A DNA stretch of 64,000 nt from assembly GCF_055900595.2 (NCBI RefSeq), contig NZ_CM148325.1. One strand, given 5' to 3'. Position 1 is the stretch's first letter. Each line of letters begins with the position of its first letter. The notes under the pieces are model-generated. The model saw only the letters and a list, made by a program, of their open reading frames with translations, ran no database searches and had not been told where the DNA came from. This document shows, in pieces, positions 1-26,300 of the stretch. Position numbers and translations under genes: made by a program.

Positions 1-675
1 AGCGATATCCTCATGGATATCGAAATTGACCACGCAGACCAGACCGAAGAGAGCGATATATCCTTCCTGACCCGCATGGCTGAAATGCTGGGTGCGATTG
101 CCACCGTAAAAAACGGCAGCCTGTTATTCATTCTGCCGGGTGGCGGAACCGGGCCGGACGGAAGAGCCCTGCCTTCGTTCGCCATTACCCGCAGCAGCGG
201 CGACAGTCACCGCTTTCGCATTGCTGACCGTGATGCGTATACGGGGGTCCGGGCGCACTGGCTCGATCTGAAGTTCGGGCAAAAGAAAAAAGTGAACGTG
301 AAGCGACGCAGGGAAGCCGGGAAACAGAAACAGGAGAAGAGCAGCAGCCGGGAAGGTGATTACATGGAGGGCGCGGAAGGGAACGTCTACGTTCTGCGCA
401 GGACTTACCAGAATGAAGAAACCGCACGACGTGCAGCAGCTGCAAAGTGGCAGGAACTACAGCGGGGCGCGGCATCATTCTCCATCACGCTGGCGCGCGG
501 TCGTGCCGACCTGTACCCTGAAATGCACGGCAGGGTAACAGGTTTTAAAAGCGAGGTGGACAATCAGGACTGGATTATTGCCAGGGTGGAGCACAGCATA
601 GATGAAAGCGGCTTCACCACACAACTGGAGCTGGAAGCGAAAATCCCCGAATGGATAGCAGATTCAGGCGGATAA
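1..675 (+). CDS. P2-like phage late control protein D (gpD), C-terminal part; ORF is open at window start so 5' end lies upstream
   Basis: Translation recognised as gpD-like tail/late protein; frame open from position 1; followed 44 bp later by an ogr-like gene as in P2 gene order D-ogr-att. Confidence 0.75.
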   Translation, partial: SDILMDIEIDHADQTEESDISFLTRMAEMLGAIATVKNGSLLFILPGGGTGPDGRALPSFAITRSSGDSHRFRIADRDAYTGVRAHWLDLKFGQKKKVNVKRRREAGKQKQEKSSSREGDYMEGAEGNVYVLRRTYQNEETARRAAAAKWQELQRGAASFSITLARGRADLYPEMHGRVTGFKSEVDNQDWIIARVEHSIDESGFTTQLELEAKIPEWIADSGG

Positions 676-718: not shown

Positions 719-970
719 ATGTTCCGTTGTCCCCTGTGCGGTGCATCCGCACGTATCCGCACCAGTCGCAATGAAAATGATTCAGGCACAGTTCGCCTGA
801 AGTACTACCAGTGCAATAACCTCGAATGCGGGATCGGCTTTACCACACTGGAGGGTTTTAACAAATTCACATCAAAACGCGCCCCGTCGCCGCAGGGTAC
901 AGAGCGGATACCGTGGGAAGATTTTCCGGGATCTCACAGGGGGAATGCTCAGATGAATCTTGATATTTAA
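719..970 (+). CDS. ogr: Ogr/Delta-family zinc-finger late transcription activator (P2-like phage)
   Basis: 83 aa, Cys4 motif C-x2-C-x24-C-x4-C (CPLC...CNNLEC), AAGGAG RBS 7 nt upstream of ATG, position immediately after gpD. Confidence 0.8.
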   Translation: MFRCPLCGASARIRTSRNENDSGTVRLKYYQCNNLECGIGFTTLEGFNKFTSKRAPSPQGTERIPWEDFPGSHRGNAQMNLDI

Positions 971-980
971 GAACAATAAT

Positions 981-1114
981 CAGGTTGAGAGGACATCATA
1001 AGGCAAGTAGATTAACGGCAGATACTTTCCCGCAACCACGGGCAAGTATTTAATTATCCATGATGAAATATGACCTAAATTGTTTTTTGCCCGCCGGAAA
1101 GCGGGCATTTTTTT
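981..1114 (+). repeat. Partial copy (U0) of a repeated unit, ending in terminator hairpin T0; candidate phage attR / 3' end of an sRNA-like gene
   Basis: Shares ggttgag, agtagattaac, attatccatgat and the terminator with the units at 1626-1783 and 1828-1987. Confidence 0.5.
1088..1114 (+). terminator. Intrinsic terminator-like hairpin T0 (tgcccgc-cggaaa-gcgggca + T7)
   Basis: 7-bp GC stem, 6-nt loop, 7 consecutive T; identical to T1. Confidence 0.7.
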
Positions 1115-1328
1115 ATTCTTTTGTGGTTATGGGGTCATCAGGAACCACGTGCAGATTATATTTTTGTTTTTTTGGCGTTCCTCCGGCAGCAACGAGTTCA
1201 TCAATAAGACACTGACACGCCTGAACATCCCGGGCATGTCTTAGTTTCACCTTTATTGATTTAACCTTATCCTCACCGGAGGAGAAATGCAGTTCAATCT
1301 CAATATCGTTTCTTCGGAACAATCTCAT
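1113..1328 (-). CDS. Hypothetical small protein (71 aa), orphan ORF between repeat copies
   Basis: ORF with G-rich RBS-like tract (caggggggcgt) directly upstream of ATG; no family recognised; stop codon abuts T0. Confidence 0.35.
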   Translation of the reverse strand: MRLFRRNDIEIELHFSSGEDKVKSIKVKLRHARDVQACQCLIDELVAAGGTPKKQKYNLHVVPDDPITTKE

Positions 1329-1554
1329 ACGCCCCCCTGAACATATCAGAAATGCTAGTATCGAAAAATGAGAAAACAGTTAGACAGGAGAAACATATTA
1401 ACACAAATCATTTATACCTATAGATGAAATTATAATTTCATTCATGAATATGATAGATAACTATATTGTGAACAAAATGAAAAATGGCTAAATTAAAAAT
1501 GGGCATGGAGGAATGCCTCGTAATCAGTAATACATGATCCATACTTCCTTGTTT

Positions 1555-1581
1555 TGCCCGCCGGAAAGCGGGCATTTTTTT
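1555..1581 (+). terminator. Intrinsic terminator-like hairpin T1 (identical to T0)
   Basis: Same stem-loop and T7 run as T0; preceded by conserved catgat motif. Confidence 0.7.
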
Positions 1582-1625
1582 GGCGGTTACCATCGCCTCA
1601 CCTTCCTGGTTCACACAAAGCAACC

Positions 1626-1783
1626 CTGATTTTCCATGAAAACTTCAGGGTTGAGCCAAAAGCACAAAGACAGTAGATTAACCAAGGGTACCCGCCACCT
1701 GCCAACAGGAACGGTATCCAGTACGTATTAATGACTGACAATTCACATTGCTGTTTTGCCCGCCAGAAGGTGGGCATTTTTTT
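1626..1783 (+). repeat. Repeat unit A (about 158 bp) ending in terminator T2; candidate sRNA-like gene copy
   Basis: About 85 percent identical to unit B over the first 75 nt; ends in hairpin gcccgcc-agaa-ggtgggc (one G.U pair) + T7 at 1757-1783. Confidence 0.55.
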
Positions 1784-1827
1784 GGCAGTTATCATGGACG
1801 CACCTTCATGACACATATTAAGCAGAC

Positions 1828-1987
1828 CTGATTTTTCCATGAAAAATTCATGGTTGAGACAAAAGCACAAAAACAGTAGATTAACCACGGGTGCCTGCCA
1901 CCTGACAACAGGAAGGGGTGTCCATTATCCATGATATACAAACGAAAAGTCTTGTCTTTTGCCCGCCGTTGCGCGGGCTTTTTTTTT
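1828..1987 (+). repeat. Repeat unit B (about 160 bp) ending in terminator T3; candidate sRNA-like gene copy
   Basis: Homologous to unit A and to U0; ends in hairpin gcccgc-cgttgc-gcgggc + T9 at 1961-1987. Confidence 0.55.
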
Positions 1988-2016: not shown

Positions 2017-2238
2017 TCAGAGGCGCGTAAGCCACCCGGCGTTAACATCCTGCCCGTCAACCCTGACCGCAGAGTCTGAACGGCAGGCACCGGAAGCAGT
2101 ACCAAAAACACCTCTGACAAGTTCCGCCACCTTCCCGATATCATCAGGCGCCACATTCCTCACCTCGACAGCGATCCGTGGCGTACCATCATCGTTAACA
2201 AGCGTGGCTTTAAGGCTGGTACGACGGGCAAATAACAT
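2017..2238 (-). CDS. Hypothetical protein (73 aa, MLFARRTSLKATLVNDDGTPRIAVEV...)
   Basis: ORF with GGAGG-type Shine-Dalgarno (gggaggggg) 8 nt upstream of ATG, balanced amino-acid composition; family not recognised. Confidence 0.4.
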   Translation of the reverse strand: MLFARRTSLKATLVNDDGTPRIAVEVRNVAPDDIGKVAELVRGVFGTASGACRSDSAVRVDGQDVNAGWLTRL

Positions 2239-2294: not shown

Positions 2295-2329
2295 AAAAGC
2301 CCACAACGTCAGGATTGCGGGCTTTTTTT
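2295..2329 (+). terminator. Hairpin T4 with A-tract upstream and T7 downstream (bidirectional terminator-like)
   Basis: aaaagccc...gggcttttttt about 70 bp upstream of copA -35. Confidence 0.5.
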
Positions 2330-2394
2330 CTTCAAAAATGGACACTACGTGGACACTGATTAAATAATCCTTTCTTAATCAGACTGTTAAAATG

Positions 2395-2431
2395 CTTGAC
2401 CTTCCCCTTGCTGGAAGGTTTAACCTTTAAC
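2395..2431 (+). promoter_or_regulatory. copA promoter with CueR (MerR-family) operator dyad ccttcc-N7-ggaagg between -35 and -10
   Basis: Sequence cttgaccttccccttgctggaaggtttaacc recognised as the copA/CueR box; AAGGAG RBS at 2454-2459. Confidence 0.85.
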
Positions 2432-2465
2432 ACAGTCAGTCAACACTGTCTTAAAGGAGTACGTT

Positions 2466-4970
2466 ATGTCACAAACTATCGACCTGACCCTGGACGGCCT
2501 GTCCTGCGGTCACTGCGTTAAACGCGTGAAAGAAAGTCTCGAACAGCGCCCGGATGTTGAGCAGGCGGATGTGTCTATCACTGAAGCGCACGTTACCGGT
2601 ACTGCCAGTGCAGAACAGCTGATCGAAACCATCAAACAAGCGGGTTATGACGCATCTGTAAGCCACCCAAAGGCTAAACCGCTGGCGGAGTCATCAATCC
2701 CGTCGGAAGCACTGACAGCGGTTTCTGAGGCGCTTCCGGCAGCAAACGCCGATGACGATGACAGTCAGCAGTTGCTGCTGAGCGGCATGAGCTGCGCCAG
2801 CTGTGTTACCCGCGTACAAAATGCGCTGCAAAGCGTACCGGGCGTCACTCAGGCACGGGTAAACCTGGCGGAGCGTACTGCGCTGGTGATGGGCAGTGCC
2901 TCCCCACAAGATTTAGTGCAGGCAGTGGAAAAAGCGGGCTACGGCGCGGAAGCGATTGAAGATGACGCTAAACGCCGCGAGCGCCAGCAGGAAACCGCCG
3001 TCGCTACCATGAAGCGCTTCCGCTGGCAGGCAATTGTCGCTCTGGCGGTAGGTATCCCGGTGATGGTCTGGGGGATGATCGGCGATAACATGATGGTCAC
3101 CGCCGACAACCGCAGTCTGTGGTTAGTTATCGGCCTGATAACGCTGGCGGTAATGGTTTTCGCCGGCGGGCATTTTTACCGTAGCGCATGGAAAAGCCTG
3201 CTGAACGGTGCGGCGACAATGGATACGCTGGTGGCGCTGGGTACTGGCGTGGCGTGGCTCTATTCAATGAGCGTCAACCTGTGGCCGCAGTGGTTCCCGA
3301 TGGAAGCGCGACATCTTTATTACGAAGCCAGTGCGATGATTATCGGTCTGATTAATCTCGGTCATATGCTGGAAGCGCGCGCACGTCAGCGTTCTTCAAA
3401 GGCGCTGGAGAAATTACTCGATTTAACCCCGCCGACGGCGCGCCTGGTCACTGACGAAGGTGAAAAAAGCGTGCCGCTGGCAGATGTTCAGCCTGGTATG
3501 TTACTACGCCTGACGACCGGCGATCGCGTACCGGTAGATGGTGAAATTACCCAGGGCGAAGCGTGGCTGGATGAAGCAATGCTGACGGGCGAACCTATTC
3601 CGCAGCAAAAAGGCGAAGGCGATAGCGTTCATGCAGGTACCGTGGTGCAGGACGGTAGCGTGCTGTTTCGTGCCAGTGCGGTTGGCAGCCATACTACGCT
3701 GTCACGGATCATTCGTATGGTGCGCCAGGCCCAGAGCAGTAAACCGGAAATCGGCCAGTTGGCGGATAAAATCTCTGCCGTATTTGTGCCGGTAGTGGTG
3801 GTGATTGCGCTGGTCAGTGCGGCAATCTGGTACTTCTTTGGTCCGGCACCGCAAATTGTTTATACCCTGGTGATTGCCACTACGGTACTGATTATCGCCT
3901 GCCCGTGTGCGCTGGGGCTGGCAACGCCAATGTCGATTATTTCCGGCGTCGGGCGTGCGGCTGAATTTGGCGTGCTGGTGCGGGACGCCGACGCGCTGCA
4001 GCGCGCCAGTACGCTCGACACCGTAGTGTTCGATAAAACCGGGACGCTGACCGAAGGGAAGCCGCAGGTTGTCGCAGTAAAAACATTTGCTGATGTTGAT
4101 GAAGCGCAAGCATTGCGTCTGGCGGCGGCACTGGAACAAGGTTCCAGCCATCCGCTGGCACGGGCGATCCTCGATAAAGCAGGCGATATGCAGCTGCCGC
4201 AGGTCAACAGCTTCCGTACATTGCGTGGGCTGGGCGTGAGCGGTGAAGCAGAAGGTCATGCGTTATTGCTGGGTAATCAGGCGTTGTTAAATGACCAGCA
4301 AGTCGATACTAAAGCGATTGAAGCAGATATTTCAGCCCAGGCATCGCAAGGGGCAACGCCTGTGCTGCTGGCGGTTGACGGGAAAGCGGTGGCCTTGCTG
4401 GCGGTGCGCGATCCGTTGCGTAACGATAGTGTGGCGGCACTGCAACGTCTGCATAAAGCGGGATATCGTCTGGTGATGCTAACCGGGGATAACCCGACCA
4501 CCGCCAATGCGATCGCCAAAGAAGCAGGGATTGATGAGGTGATAGCCGGCGTGCTGCCAGACGGTAAAGCCGAAGCGATCAAACGTCTGCAAAGTGAAGG
4601 ACGTCAGGTGGCAATGGTGGGCGACGGCATTAACGACGCGCCAGCGCTGGCTCAGGCGGATGTCGGTATTGCTATGGGTGGCGGCAGCGATGTTGCCATT
4701 GAAACCGCGGCGATTACCCTGATGCGCCATAGCCTGATGGGTGTTGCGGATGCGCTCGCAATTTCCCGCGCAACGCTGCGCAACATGAAGCAGAACCTGC
4801 TCGGTGCGTTTATCTACAACAGCATTGGTATTCCGGTCGCCGCCGGTATTTTGTGGCCGTTCACGGGAACACTGCTTAACCCGGTGGTTGCCGGAGCGGC
4901 AATGGCGCTCTCGTCGATTACCGTAGTGAGTAACGCCAACCGGTTGCTGCGGTTTAAACCGAAGGAATAA
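2466..4970 (+). CDS. copA: Cu(I)-translocating P-type ATPase
   Basis: 834 aa; two N-terminal GxxCxxC metal-binding domains, CPC motif, DKTGT phosphorylation site. Confidence 0.97.
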
Positions 4971-5165
4971 GTATGTCATTGCGGATGCGCTGCTTTAGGG
5001 TGGCGCATCTGGCATCGACGCATGCCTGCCGGATGCGGCGATGTTTTGGCCTTACGCGACCTTTTTGCACGTTTTCCCCGGCGTGCCAAATATTTAATCC
5101 GTCCCAACTCCATTTGCGCCATCCCTCACCGCGCGCTAGCATGATATTTCACAAAGGGAGGTCGT

Positions 5166-5960
5166 ATGGATCTGTTGTACCGGGTAAAAACGCTTTGGGC
5201 CGCGCTGTGCGGTAATCATTACACCTGGCCTGCTATCGATATCTCTCTTCCCGACCATCGCCATTTTCATCTAATCGGCAGTATTCATATGGGTAGCCAC
5301 GATATGGCTCCCCTGCCCACCCGTTTGCTCAAAAAGCTCAAAAACGCCGATGCGCTGATCGTCGAGGCGGATGTTTCTACCAGCGATACGCCTTTTGCCA
5401 ATTTGCCTGCCTGCGAGGCGCTGGAAGAGCGCATTAGCGAGGAGCAACTCCAAAACCTGCAGCACATTAGCCAGGAGATGGGCATTTCTCCGTCGCTCTT
5501 TTCTACCCAACCGCTGTGGCAAATCGCGATGGTTCTTCAGGCAACGCAAGCGCAAAAACTGGGGCTGCGGGCAGAATATGGTATCGATTACCAGCTATTG
5601 CAGGTGGCGAAGCAACAACATAAACCCGTGATTGAACTGGAAGGGGCAGAAAACCAGATTGCCATGTTGCTCCAGCTCCCTGACAAAGGACTGGCGCTGC
5701 TGGACGATACGCTGACCCACTGGCACACCAACGCTCGTTTGCTGCAACAAATGATGAGTTGGTGGCTGAATGCACCACCGCAAAATAATGAAATAACGCT
5801 GCCCAATACGTTCAGTCAGTCGCTGTACGATGTGTTGATGCATCAGCGAAATCTCGCCTGGCGGGACAAATTACGCGCTATGCCGCCGGGGCGCTATGTG
5901 GTCGCGGTCGGTGCACTACACCTGTATGGAGAAGGGAATTTGCCACAAATGTTGCGCTAA
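5166..5960 (+). CDS. ybaP: TraB-family protein YbaP
   Basis: 264 aa, recognised as YbaP; GGAGG RBS. Confidence 0.9.
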   Translation: MDLLYRVKTLWAALCGNHYTWPAIDISLPDHRHFHLIGSIHMGSHDMAPLPTRLLKKLKNADALIVEADVSTSDTPFANLPACEALEERISEEQLQNLQHISQEMGISPSLFSTQPLWQIAMVLQATQAQKLGLRAEYGIDYQLLQVAKQQHKPVIELEGAENQIAMLLQLPDKGLALLDDTLTHWHTNARLLQQMMSWWLNAPPQNNEITLPNTFSQSLYDVLMHQRNLAWRDKLRAMPPGRYVVAVGALHLYGEGNLPQMLR

Positions 5961-6042
5961 AAAAATGGCCAATATCGCTATTGGCCCGTCAAAGAGGAAT
6001 TTCATTTTTTTATTATTATGCCGTCACTTTAAGCGACGGTGT
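5959..6042 (-). ncRNA. chiX: ChiX (SroB/MicM) Hfq-dependent small RNA
   Basis: Reverse complement matches remembered ChiX sequence ACACCGTCGCTTAAAGTGACGGC...GGCCAATAGCGATATTGGCCATTTTTTT; 3' end overlaps ybaP stop codon. Confidence 0.9.
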
Positions 6043-23319: not shown

Positions 23320-26300
23320 TTACCCTACCGCTGGTGTCGGATCGTCGCCTTTGTAGTCGCGTTTTACTTCCGTCACCTCATCGCCCTTCTCGTTGTGCAG
23401 ATGCACTTCAAGCTGGTTAAAGGCAATGTTGATGTCGTTTTCACGGCACAGCTGATCGATAGTACGGTTCAGCTCATCGACAGTACGGCTACGGTCACGC
23501 AGTTCACGCACATACAGACGCAGCTCATGATCCAACGTGCTGGCACCAAACGCCGTAAAGAAGACTTCCGGCATTGGTTCGTGCATCACCCTTGGGTGCT
23601 CAGTCGCCGCCTTCAGTAACACTTTACGCACTTTTTCCAGATCGGAGCCATAGGCCACACCGAGACGGATCACCAGACGCGTAGTAGTGTCAGTCAACGA
23701 CCAGTTGATCAGACGCTCGGTAACAAACGCTTTGTTCGGGATGATCACTTCTTTGCGATCGAAATCGGTAATCGTTGTCGCACGAATACGAATCTTACTT
23801 ACCGTCCCCGAGAAGCTACCAATGGTTACCGTATCGCCAATGCGTACCGGACGTTCGAACAGAATGATCAAACCGGAGACAAAGTTACCGAAGATCTCTT
23901 GTAAACCAAAACCAAGACCTACGGATAATGCTGCCGCCAGCCACTGGAGTTTATCCCACGAGACGCCCAGCGATCCGAACACCGTCATCGCACCAACGGC
24001 AATAATGATGTAGTTAAGGATGGTAGTAATGGCATACGACGCGCCCTGGCGCATATTCAGGCGCGAGAGCACCAACACTTCCAGCAAACCAGGCAGGTTG
24101 CGAATCAACGCCCAGGCTACCATTGAGGCGATAATCGCAAACAACAGACTGCCCATGGTGACGTTTTTCACCACCGCAGCGCCAGCTTCAGTGCCGTTGT
24201 AATGCCAGAGCGTGATGCTGTCGAGATAGCTGAACACGGTGATCAAATCTGACCAAATTGCCCAGAACATGACACCGAACAGCGCAAACATCAGCAACAT
24301 AGTAATACGCAGCGTCTGTTGGTTAACCTGCTCCAGTGCAATGGTTGGTTCTTCCGGCGGTTCGGCACCTTCTGCGCCCTCTTTCACCAGATTCTGTCGA
24401 CGCGCTAGCGCACGACGCCAGGCGATACGCCGCGCCGCTACGCTTAAGCCGCGCAATACCGTCTGGTACAGCAGGTTCCAGATAATCACCAGATACACGG
24501 TTTCAATCCAACGTCCGGAGAGGCGCAGTGTGGTGTAGAAATAACCCGTGGCGGTCAGCACCATCAACGCAATCGGGATTATCGACAGTATGGTAATGGT
24601 GACAAGTCGCATGGTGTGCGACTCTTTATCACGCCAGCTTTCGCGGCACATTGGCCATACCAGGAAGGCAATCAGCAGCAGGTTGAAGAAAATCATCGCC
24701 TGCCCCAGCACATCATCCATCAGATGCAGCGGGGAAAGTTCTGCCACCACAGACCAGAAATGGATAGGCAGCAACGCGAGACTGATGCGGACAATTTGCC
24801 GACGCCAGTGGCTGGTCTGCTGTTCCGGCATGCCGAAGTGACGCACGGCAACACCGTTTTTCTCCAGTACCTTCCAGCACAGGCCAAACACCAGCCAGAA
24901 AATCGCCAGTTTTTTACTGAACGACCATAGCAGTTCGCTGATGTTGAGCTGCATGGTCAACAGAATCAGGCCAACCGCGAGAATAATCAGGCACACCGGC
25001 AGCGCACGGATCAGGTCGATAAGGATCGCTTTTGGTGTGTTGAGCTGGCTGTCGTTACGCAGGGAACCCACAGCGGAAGCCAGTTTTTGTTGATACGCTT
25101 TCAGCCAGCCCAGACGCCAGTGGATCAGCCCGGCAATTAATAGCAGTGGCAAACCAGCGAGGAAAGCGATAAAGACGGCAGGCCAGGCTTTTTCCCAGTT
25201 TACCGTGATCTTCATCGACTTAAATTCATCTTTCAGCGTTTGTGGGAACGCTTTGATCCAGTCCCAGTCCATTGGACGGTTACTGTTCACCCAAAAGATT
25301 TGCTGAGTCAGGATCGATTTCAGGTTTTTCGACACGCTCATTAACTGCTGCTGGTTGATTTGCAGGTTAATGGCCATCATCAGCTGGTTACCCAACTGTT
25401 TGTTAAGCTGATCCAGCAATTCGCGACGCATATCAACTACTTGCAATAACGCATCGTGAACTTCGCTGTTGACTTCGTTGGTGTGACCTTCTTCCAGTTT
25501 GTTGACGAACGCATCGCTCTGGAAGAGTGCATCACGCTGCTGGTTAACTTCAAACTGTTCGAGACGCAAATCCGCGATGCGGTTGGTCATGTTTTCCAGT
25601 TCATCCGCCGAGGGCAGCGTTTGTTGTTGCTGGTAAAGGATACGAGACAACAGCAGACTGCCCTTCAGGACGGCAATCTGCTCCTTAATATTTCGTTCCG
25701 ATTGCAGCGCCCGCTCAAGCCAGTTTTTGACTTTAATGTTTTGCTGCATTAGCTGATTACCGTTTTCAGTCGCGGTAATCAGACGCTGACTCAACTGCTG
25801 GTTAATTTCCAGTTCCTGTTTCACCAGAGGATTAGCCTGAATACGTGCAGCTTCATCCGGGGAGACGGCTTCCTGCGCCGTTTTTTCGGTTAAGGTCAGG
25901 CGCTTACTGTTTACCGCTTCTTGCAACAGTTGCAACTGGTGTTCCAGACGAGCACTGTTCGCCGTCACGTAATCACGCTGCTTTTGCAAGGTATCCTGTA
26001 AGACGGTGTTCCCTTCCAGGCTTTTTCGCTGCTGGTCAATCTCAGCATTCAGCAAAACCTGCTGGGCCTGCATCAACACTTTCTGGCTGGGACGTAAGGC
26101 AGTATCGCCAACATCAGTGCCATCCAGGCGGCTGCGAATTTGTTGCAGCTGCTGCGAAGCGTTATACATCGCATTTTGCACGCGTTCGGGCTGCGTCTGT
26201 AACGAAACCAGCTGGCTGTTATAAGACGCCAGATCGTTTTGTGCGTTTTGCAAATCGTCCAGCGCCTGGGCAACGCGAGTTTCCAGCTGGCGCAACGAAA

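Follow-up and report, generated by a model that had tools for sequence, protein, structure and literature searches.

Introduction

Bacteriophage P2 provides the closest described counterpart of the locus analysed here. In the P2 record (AF063097), ogr is followed by a feature annotated as 'rho-independent terminator for ogr transcript and F operon' (24265–24288), the Int P arm (24293–24320), an IHF site (24324–24357), the attP core (24356–24383), the Cox sites, and an Int P′ arm that overlaps the end of int. Integrases of the P2 group share the arm-type direct-repeat consensus tgTGGaCa (Nilsson et al., PMC3448106), and P2-like phages use many intergenic integration sites (PMC3603311; PMC3448106).

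Here, we describe a hairpin at positions 2295–2329 of a 64,000-nt stretch of DNA (RefSeq assembly GCF_055900595.2, contig NZ_CM148325.1), referred to below as the window. An initial annotation had taken this element for a bidirectional-looking hairpin that insulates the promoter of copA from an adjacent island. Our preferred reading, to which we assign a probability of about 0.78, is that it represents an intrinsic two-way terminator of the P2-family type, located at the outer edge of a phage P arm and brought to copA by integration.

The prophage junction at copA

The features of the region, in window coordinates, are:

13–675, plus strand: 3′ part of gpD (late control D), P2 family; an open reading frame (ORF) colinear with an E. 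coli Ch1 gene that carries the annotation 'phage late control D family protein'
719–970, plus strand: ogr/Delta-like zinc-finger late activator gene; an ORF, ogr/Delta-like in Ch1, with 80 related IMG/VR loci
983–1987, plus strand: phage cargo of repeated modules (the 'repeat array' of the initial annotation), each with a promoter-like motif, about 95 nt, and a strong plus-only terminator
2017–2238, minus strand: 73-aa ORF of doubtful coding status (hypothetical protein WP_029490443.1 in Ch1)
2295–2329, no strand assigned: hairpin, bidirectional and intrinsic-terminator-like by fold and terminator score of either strand, at the outer end of the attR P arm; its position recurs in the P2 annotation, the WPhi sequence, and other P2-like prophages
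2339–2356, plus strand: Int arm-type repeats TGGACAC-TACG-TGGACAC, matching the P2-group consensus tgTGGaCa and the annotated P2 Int arm features
2377–2389, plus strand: IHF-like site AATCAGACTGTTA, with one mismatch to WATCAANNNNTTR, an A/T-rich tract before it, and position and spacing to the core as for the annotated P2 IHF site and for the equivalent A/T-rich segments of other P2-like arms
2395–2414, plus strand: att core (attR) CTTGACCTTCCCCTTGCTGG, identical over 20 bp at Ch1 attL and present as a single copy in the window
2396–2426, plus strand: copA promoter, rebuilt intact across the junction (−35 TTGACC at 2396–2401, 19-bp spacer, −10 TAACCT at 2421–2426; aligned with K-12)
2466–4970, plus strand: copA, Cu+-exporting P-type ATPase, chromosomal

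Read from left to right, the order is ogr, 1.3 kb of cargo, the hairpin, two Int arm-type repeats, an IHF-like site, the 20-bp core, and copA, and this string of features matches that of P2 and WPhi at nearly the same spacing. Nine bases separate the T-run of the hairpin from the first arm repeat, the arm repeats keep an 11-bp register, and five bases lie between the IHF-like site and the core. From gpD, the prophage runs leftwards out of the window; on the chromosomal side, copA is followed by ybaP, in reversed orientation relative to K-12.

The window's own attL lies outside the window, and the evidence for attL comes from the lysogen Ch1, which is 98.7% identical to the window over 1950–2470 and colinear with it from gpD to copA. 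Ch1 carries a complete prophage between glsA and copA, with int adjoining glsA. At its attL, K-12 sequence ending in TTATTAATTT is followed by CTTGACCTTCCCCTTGCTGG and then by phage sequence starting with GGACAAAGAACTG. At attR, in the window and in Ch1 alike, phage sequence ending in GTTAAAATG is followed by CTTGACCTTCCCCTTGCTGG and then by AAGGTTTAACC, the latter being K-12 sequence. The stretch CTTGACCTTCCCCTTGCTGG was found at Ch1 attL (L006:15561–15580), at attR of the window and Ch1, and at K-12 attB. As a 20-bp direct repeat shared by attL and attR, it is therefore the att core, and the attP of the excised phage is predicted to read ...CAGACTGTTAAAATG-CTTGACCTTCCCCTTGCTGG-GGACAAAGAACTGCG....

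On the host side of the junction, the −35 and −10 assignments and a CueR dyad, ACCTTCC-N7-GGAAGGT, at 2399–2419 follow what is established for the copA promoter. Under these assignments, the core covers the copA −35, the CueR left half-site together with the spacer, and, of the right half-site, two bases at its start. Because the core coincides with the copA −35/CueR operator, integration set the whole P arm directly upstream of the rebuilt copA promoter.

A second P2-like prophage lineage (strains H1827/12 and 2-1) breaks at the same copA base, and the integrase of this H1827/12-type lineage is 82% identical to Ch1 Int. The latter shares 47% identity with P2 Int and 46% with WPhi Int, the N-terminal arm-binding region being conserved, and its gene is transcribed towards the att site. 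In IMG/VR, the sequence TGGACAYTAYSTGGACAC was found in 58 stretches, in most cases at the int 3′ end (the P′ arm) of a P2-like contig and in a few cases at copA together with an H1827-type hairpin; the int-side arm of the Ch1 prophage (attL) has the same repeats (TGTGGACACTCAATGGACA). Positions 2295–2394 form the phage P arm.

These data moved the boundary between chromosome and island, which had been suspected at the hairpin, to the core at 2395–2414, leaving the hairpin 66 bp inside the island. One might still regard the hairpin itself as the attachment site or as a boundary marker, given that P2-like phages often integrate into terminator-like sequences and that the SCU-type core at zapB and serS looks like one. 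We consider this highly improbable: the direct repeat of attL and attR is 2395–2414 and not the hairpin, and the homology of related phage ends at different loci goes 38 bp beyond the hairpin, to about 2367.

Several further observations concern the surroundings of such junctions. An SCU-115-type arm is joined to zapB (L004:5395–5450) and to serS (L072–L074:2815–2860) via nearly the same terminator-like core, CAAAAGCGCCCGCAGGYGC, which suggests one integrase using two attB sites. In strain 33-6 (L003:3900–4131), arm repeats, an A/T-rich segment, and the core are found upstream of copA without the hairpin and without a prophage; this remnant adjoins Hok/Gef and a serine acetyltransferase, and it looks like a decayed attR. 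The host backbone of the window at 2415–6000 (copA–ybaP) is 99.9–100% identical to eight RefSeq E. coli genomes in which this prophage is missing from copA. Several positions of the copA 5′ UTR deviate from K-12 and Ch1 (e.g. TTTAACACAGTCAGTCAACAC vs. TTTATCACAGCCAGTCAAAAC), and ybaQ, which K-12 has between copA and ybaP, seems to be missing from the window.

Origin and distribution of the hairpin

When the copA–glsA spacer of K-12 was aligned to the window, identity was seen only from 2395 rightwards; the DNA to the left of this position, hairpin included, was unrelated. K-12 sequence thus stops at the copA −35 and does not continue through the hairpin, in agreement with the earlier expectation of an island-borne rather than a native element. 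Among 5426 complete E. coli genomes, 5402 possess an uninterrupted K-12-type glsA–copA spacer with no hairpin, and about 20 an interrupted one. The hairpin with its flanks occurs in 28 of the 5426 genomes. Five of these carry it upstream of copA, with 100% identity to the window over 2225–2362, and 23 carry an 88%-identical variant, which in SCU-115, the one examined, is found at the end of a P2-like prophage adjoining zapB. The SCU-115-type variant adjoins serS in three further assemblies or contigs. With the same variant at both zapB and serS, the hairpin therefore moves with the phage, not with copA.

A native E. coli element upstream of copA, e.g. one that ends the transcript of a divergent or upstream host gene and insulates the copA promoter, is for us practically out of the question. 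Only the position of the hairpin, 66 bp upstream of the copA −35, speaks for it; the hairpin is missing from K-12, whose identity starts at 2395, as well as from the 5402 genomes with an intact glsA–copA spacer, and its homologous variant at zapB and serS sits inside related prophage ends. Judging from these comparisons, the hairpin is phage DNA and not native to E. coli.

More distant relatives were sought in two further collections. A distant blastn search of the INPHARED phage records with 1950–2420 gave no match, and a flank-anchored gapped pattern for divergent hairpin variants returned only three chance matches, in Firmicutes, from the GTDB representative genomes. The 5426 E. coli genomes and the protein-anchored look-ups together contained only two sequence variants of the hairpin, a number that makes covariation analysis impossible.

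Sequence, fold, and terminator scores

Direct reading of the sequence gives an A-tract (AAAAAGAAAA) at 2289–2298, a stem-loop (GCCCACAACGTCAGGATTGCGGGC) at 2299–2322, laid out as GCCCACAA-CGTCAG(G)A-TTGCGGGC, and TTTTTTT at 2323–2329, with 66 bases between the end of the T-run and the copA −35 TTGACC. Folded as RNA, 2295–2329 reached −12.9 kcal/mol for the plus strand, with one A·C mismatch in the stem (z −3.4), and −17.6 kcal/mol for the minus strand, with 13 contiguous pairs that include an A/U extension (z −6.3). None of 200 shuffles folded as well on either strand. The 24-nt stem-loop alone reached −8.5 (plus) and −13.0 kcal/mol (minus), and the T-tract 3′ of the stem reads TTTTTTTCTTC on the plus and TTTTCTTTTTCC on the minus strand. 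The locus thus combines what is expected of an intrinsic terminator at the sequence level, namely a GC-rich stem-loop that is stable relative to shuffles and a U/T-rich tract directly 3′ of it. The A-tract, GC-rich stem, and seven T of the initial annotation, and its 66-bp distance to the copA −35, are accurate.

Terminator strength was estimated with a d'Aubenton-Carafa-type score (d), a combination of stem energy per length and a T-tail score, which was computed with modern energy parameters and is approximate; it came to +11.5 on the plus and +19.4 on the minus strand. A terminator scan of 900–2600 called seven terminator-like sites, the hairpin among them, compared with 1.3 ± 1.2 in shuffles. 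The strand call of the scan tool was set aside: it assigned the hairpin to the minus strand only, as it did the P2 hairpin that is annotated on the plus strand, because A/T pairs are absorbed into the stem. The bidirectional look of the hairpin is substantiated by folding and d-scores, which are terminator-like in both orientations, while the terminators of the array are plus-only. This two-way character is a real property and sets the hairpin apart from the neighbouring array terminators.

A search of 900–2500 against Rfam 15 at permissive thresholds found no family at its gathering threshold. The sole matches over the hairpin were sub-threshold hits to Thr_leader on both strands (26.9 and 24.8 bits vs. 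a threshold of 55), which reflect a generic terminator resemblance. Within the 64-kb window, the hairpin is present as one copy (up to 3 mismatches allowed), and it falls outside the terminator family that is repeated four times in the upstream array. A dispersed palindrome of the REP/BIME kind was considered and rejected in view of this single copy and of an occurrence of once or twice per genome in 28 of 5426 genomes.

Hairpins at the P arms of P2-like phages

In P2 as in the window, a GC-rich hairpin framed by A's and T's precedes two tgTGGaCa repeats by 10–20 nt, followed by an IHF site (IHF-like in the window) and the core. In both cases, the hairpin lies between convergent transcription units on the ogr side and the int side, and both of its orientations score as terminators. 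The differences concern the stem, which is unrelated (GCCCCTC/GAGGGGC in P2 vs. GCCCACAA/TTGCGGGC in the window), the distance from ogr (10 nt in P2 vs. 1.3 kb of intervening cargo), the core (AAAAAATAAGCCCGTGTAAGGGAGATT in P2 vs. the copA −35/CueR operator), and the integrase, with its identity of only 47%. WPhi (AY135739), the H1827/12-type phage, and the IMG/VR loci L077–L146 extend the comparison: position and design of the P-arm hairpin were alike in every case examined, and the H1827-type phage shares the copA-promoter core with the window phage. The order of features seen in P2 recurs, with differing stems, in the WPhi, H1827-type, and SCU-115-type prophages. What varies is the cargo between ogr and the hairpin, the stem sequence (GCCCCTC..GAGGGGC in P2 and WPhi, GCCCGCGC..GCGGGC in the H1827 type, GCCCACAA..TTGCGGGC in the window), and, in three lineages, the T-tract, which is confined to the minus strand. 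The stem lies 16 nt from the first arm repeat in the window, 11 nt in P2, 15 nt in WPhi, and 19 nt in the H1827 type. The d-scores (plus/minus) are +40.0/+21.3 for P2, +24.5/+13.3 for WPhi, +16.1/+21.4 for the H1827 type, and −3.4/+10.9 for the SCU-115 variant.

A survey anchored on Ogr covered 80 IMG/VR loci, 24 of which had recognisable arm repeats downstream of ogr and which together represented 13 distinct P-arm regions. All 13 possess a GC-rich hairpin within 90 nt before the arm repeats. These hairpins scored d > 0 on the minus strand in 13 of 13 cases and on the plus strand in 10 of 13, the lineages of L077, L088, and L089 being the ones without a plus-strand T-tract. As a control, 300 random 102-nt windows from the same loci were scored, of which none exceeded d = 0 on the plus strand and one did so on the minus strand. 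Judged by its place in this arrangement, the window hairpin is the positional counterpart of the P2 ogr/F-operon terminator.

The inverted repeat lies beside the Int arm repeats and within the functional attP region, where a palindrome bound by the recombination machinery (an Int core-type site, a Cox-like site, or one for another accessory factor) would be at home, and it need not then be an RNA element at all. The comparison of P arms makes this very unlikely. Stems are wholly different in P2/WPhi, the H1827 type, and the window type, all of which retain the GC-stem and the T-tract, and the footprint-based annotation of P2 puts the Int, IHF, and Cox sites elsewhere. That the stem sequences diverge while the design of A-tract, GC-stem, and T-tract persists speaks for an RNA terminator rather than for a palindrome bound by a common protein. 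As a putative terminator, the hairpin does not differ in kind from generic bidirectional terminators between convergent bacterial genes, which have the same A-tract, GC-stem, and T-tract and score on both strands; what distinguishes it is its mobile-element context.

The 73-aa open reading frame

The 73-aa minus-strand ORF begins with an ATG at 2238, 57 nt downstream of the hairpin, and has a good Shine-Dalgarno sequence (GGGAGGGGG). The hairpin had been proposed to occupy the position of this ORF's promoter. A scan of 900–2600 detected no sigma-70-like minus-strand promoter at the hairpin or after it, and the proposal was not borne out.

The ORF matched no Pfam or PHROG family. Its homologues comprise four protein clusters among 5.8 billion, those with a named source being from E. 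coli. Relative to the copy in SCU-115, it shows five synonymous and 11 non-synonymous differences (dN/dS about 0.74), and the copy at the serS site has a frameshifted C-terminus. By these measures, the ORF is weakly constrained and narrowly distributed. A weak resemblance to the P2 capsid, when checked against the prophage's own capsid protein, turned out to be an eight-residue coincidence.

Could the hairpin be a 5′ leader, a regulatory structure, or part of the promoter region of this ORF? Its distance to the ATG, the good Shine-Dalgarno sequence, and the annotation of the ORF in Ch1 would fit. Yet no sigma-70-like minus-strand promoter lies at or beyond the hairpin, and UUUUCUUUUU follows the hairpin on the minus strand, such that it would terminate rather than lead. 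Together with the poor constraint and narrow distribution of the ORF, and with P2, WPhi, and others sharing the hairpin position without such an ORF, this leaves the leader function a very unlikely one, and we retain the reading as a P-arm terminator.

Cargo between ogr and the hairpin

Three modules make up the stretch at 983–1987. Each has a promoter-like sequence (TTGAGA-17-TAGATT) inside GGTTGAG..CAGTAGATTAAC, followed by about 95 nt with a conserved 5′ stem-loop. The module terminator, TTTTGCCCGCC..GGGCATTTTTTT, is present in four copies and is plus-only (d of +32 to +48 on the plus vs. −48 to −60 on the minus strand). The same cargo, in another copy number, moves with the phage to other att sites, as in the SCU-115 prophage.

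The layout of the modules resembles that of sRNA genes; a search for Rfam families in the modules gave no match. The module promoter and first bases resemble those before a hok-like gene found after ogr in many related IMG/VR contigs, which makes an origin of the modules from hok/sok-type loci possible. Between ogr and the P-arm hairpin, this Ogr lineage has a variable cargo slot of 0.3–3.4 kb, often with a Hok/Gef-type toxin gene (IMG/VR loci L096–L155 at about 3750–4092; L004:4560–5000; L003:2476–2616), and the version in the window is without the hok part. On the minus strand, a 71-aa ORF (1113–1328) matches only the C-terminal half of the 128-position phrog_14142 (E 5e-12) and looks like a gene fragment. 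Its sequence recurs in a closely related IMG/VR contig (L077:5150–5280) immediately outside another P2-like attR, which hints at stacked or recombined prophage ends.

Transcription towards the hairpin

On the plus strand, the hairpin would stop rightward phage transcription before the recombination site and, in the lysogen, before the copA promoter. In P2, the transcription stopped would be that of ogr and the late F operon; in the window, it would be residual read-through from the cargo. Each cargo module has its own strong terminator, and therefore little plus-strand transcription may reach the hairpin. The plus strand is also the one with the A·C mismatch in the stem, and on it the SCU-115 variant scores slightly negative (−3.4). 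Of the earlier suggestion that the hairpin stops read-through from the array before copA, the position holds up; the array units terminate themselves, however, and the hairpin would be at most a back-stop. The idea of an insulator for the copA promoter seems reasonable in this limited sense.

On the minus strand, the Pc-C-int transcript of the circular phage would cross the P′ arm, the core, and the P arm before meeting the hairpin, which would then be the likely 3′ end of the int mRNA in the circular phage. In P2, the int transcript reportedly covers attP. The hairpins of all 13 distinct P arms scored positively on the minus strand, the strand that faces int across attP, which suggests that the hairpin also ends the int mRNA in the circular phage. 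Integration would unlink int from the hairpin, with int transcripts then extending across attL in the direction of glsA. On both strands, termination is inferred here from sequence, as is any effect on the expression of int or copA.

As a refinement of our preferred reading, the hairpin might work mainly on the minus strand, i.e. as a terminator or 3′ stabiliser of the int mRNA, met by transcription only where attP is intact, such that the 3′ ends of int mRNA would differ between the circular and the integrated phage in a topology like that of the lambda sib switch. We hold this to be a tentative possibility, less probable than not. The minus-strand fold is the stronger one (−17.6 vs. −12.9 kcal/mol, with 13 uninterrupted pairs), the minus-strand d-scores of the survey hairpins are positive without exception, including those of L077, L088, and L089, which lack a plus-strand T-tract, and in both Ch1 and P2 the direction of int transcription is towards att. 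The two hairpin variants differ, moreover, at two positions of the stem; both changes are G·U-compatible in the minus-strand RNA and leave mismatches in the plus-strand RNA, although two transitions are statistically meaningless (chance about 0.25). Against a mainly minus-strand role, the P2 record annotates the homologous hairpin for plus-strand transcripts only, and an inverted repeat in the P′ arm could end int transcription earlier.

This inverted repeat, with a 9-bp stem, adjoins the core on the int (P′) side in Ch1 (L006:15526–15555) and strain 2-1 (L075:2822–2846). Both copA-site lineages have it, each with a stem sequence of its own. The scan called it terminator-like; its T-tail is weak and its d about −35. 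It could be a site for an accessory protein or a weak int terminator that ends the int mRNA earlier.

The sib element of phage lambda acts via RNase III cleavage of read-through PL transcripts. The likeness to lambda sib/tI is one of topology only: an RNA structure lies beyond attP as seen from int and is cut off from int by integration, with int at attL and the hairpin at attR. The structure in the window differs in being a simple terminator hairpin, and we claim no relationship in sequence or family.

Integration next to a copper-regulated promoter

The copA promoter/CueR operator is absent from the P2-like integration sites tabulated in PMC3448106, and a literature search for a copA-promoter attB or for P2-like integration at copA found nothing relevant. 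Integration at the copA promoter thus appears to be undescribed. It is also rare, given the interruption of the spacer in about 20 of 5426 genomes. As many intergenic sites are known for P2-like phages, we regard it as a modest curiosity rather than a surprise.

In the region analysed, the best promoter-like match is located at 2339–2368 on the plus strand (TGGACA-18-AATAAT, 10/12), where it overlaps the Int arm repeats and points to copA. The likeness of the arm repeats to the −35 consensus is the probable cause of this match; all the same, CueR-independent transcription into copA could start from it.

A more far-reaching proposal would be that the copA −35/CueR operator serves as attB for a clade of P2-family integrases (mutual identity 82%, identity to P2 Int 47%), that the promoter is rebuilt exactly with nothing but phage DNA upstream of its −35, that the hairpin is chiefly a terminator of the int mRNA, and that the P arm could alter the copper response of copA. 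Taken as a whole, we consider this speculative and rather doubtful. If it were true, the 3′ end of the int mRNA would be switched by integration, and lysogens would have int transcripts that continue in the direction of glsA.

The hairpin itself is ordinary, by its sequence a standard phage terminator where the P2 paradigm predicts one. What changes is the map: a P2-like prophage makes up the island, which on its right side meets the chromosome in the copA −35/CueR operator at 2395–2414. The survey may help to annotate the ends of P2-like prophages, as a hairpin that scores as a terminator on the minus strand was found beside every P arm examined. At copA, the recombination sites of a phage are set directly against a metal-regulated promoter, a modest case of a prophage rebuilding a promoter of its host.
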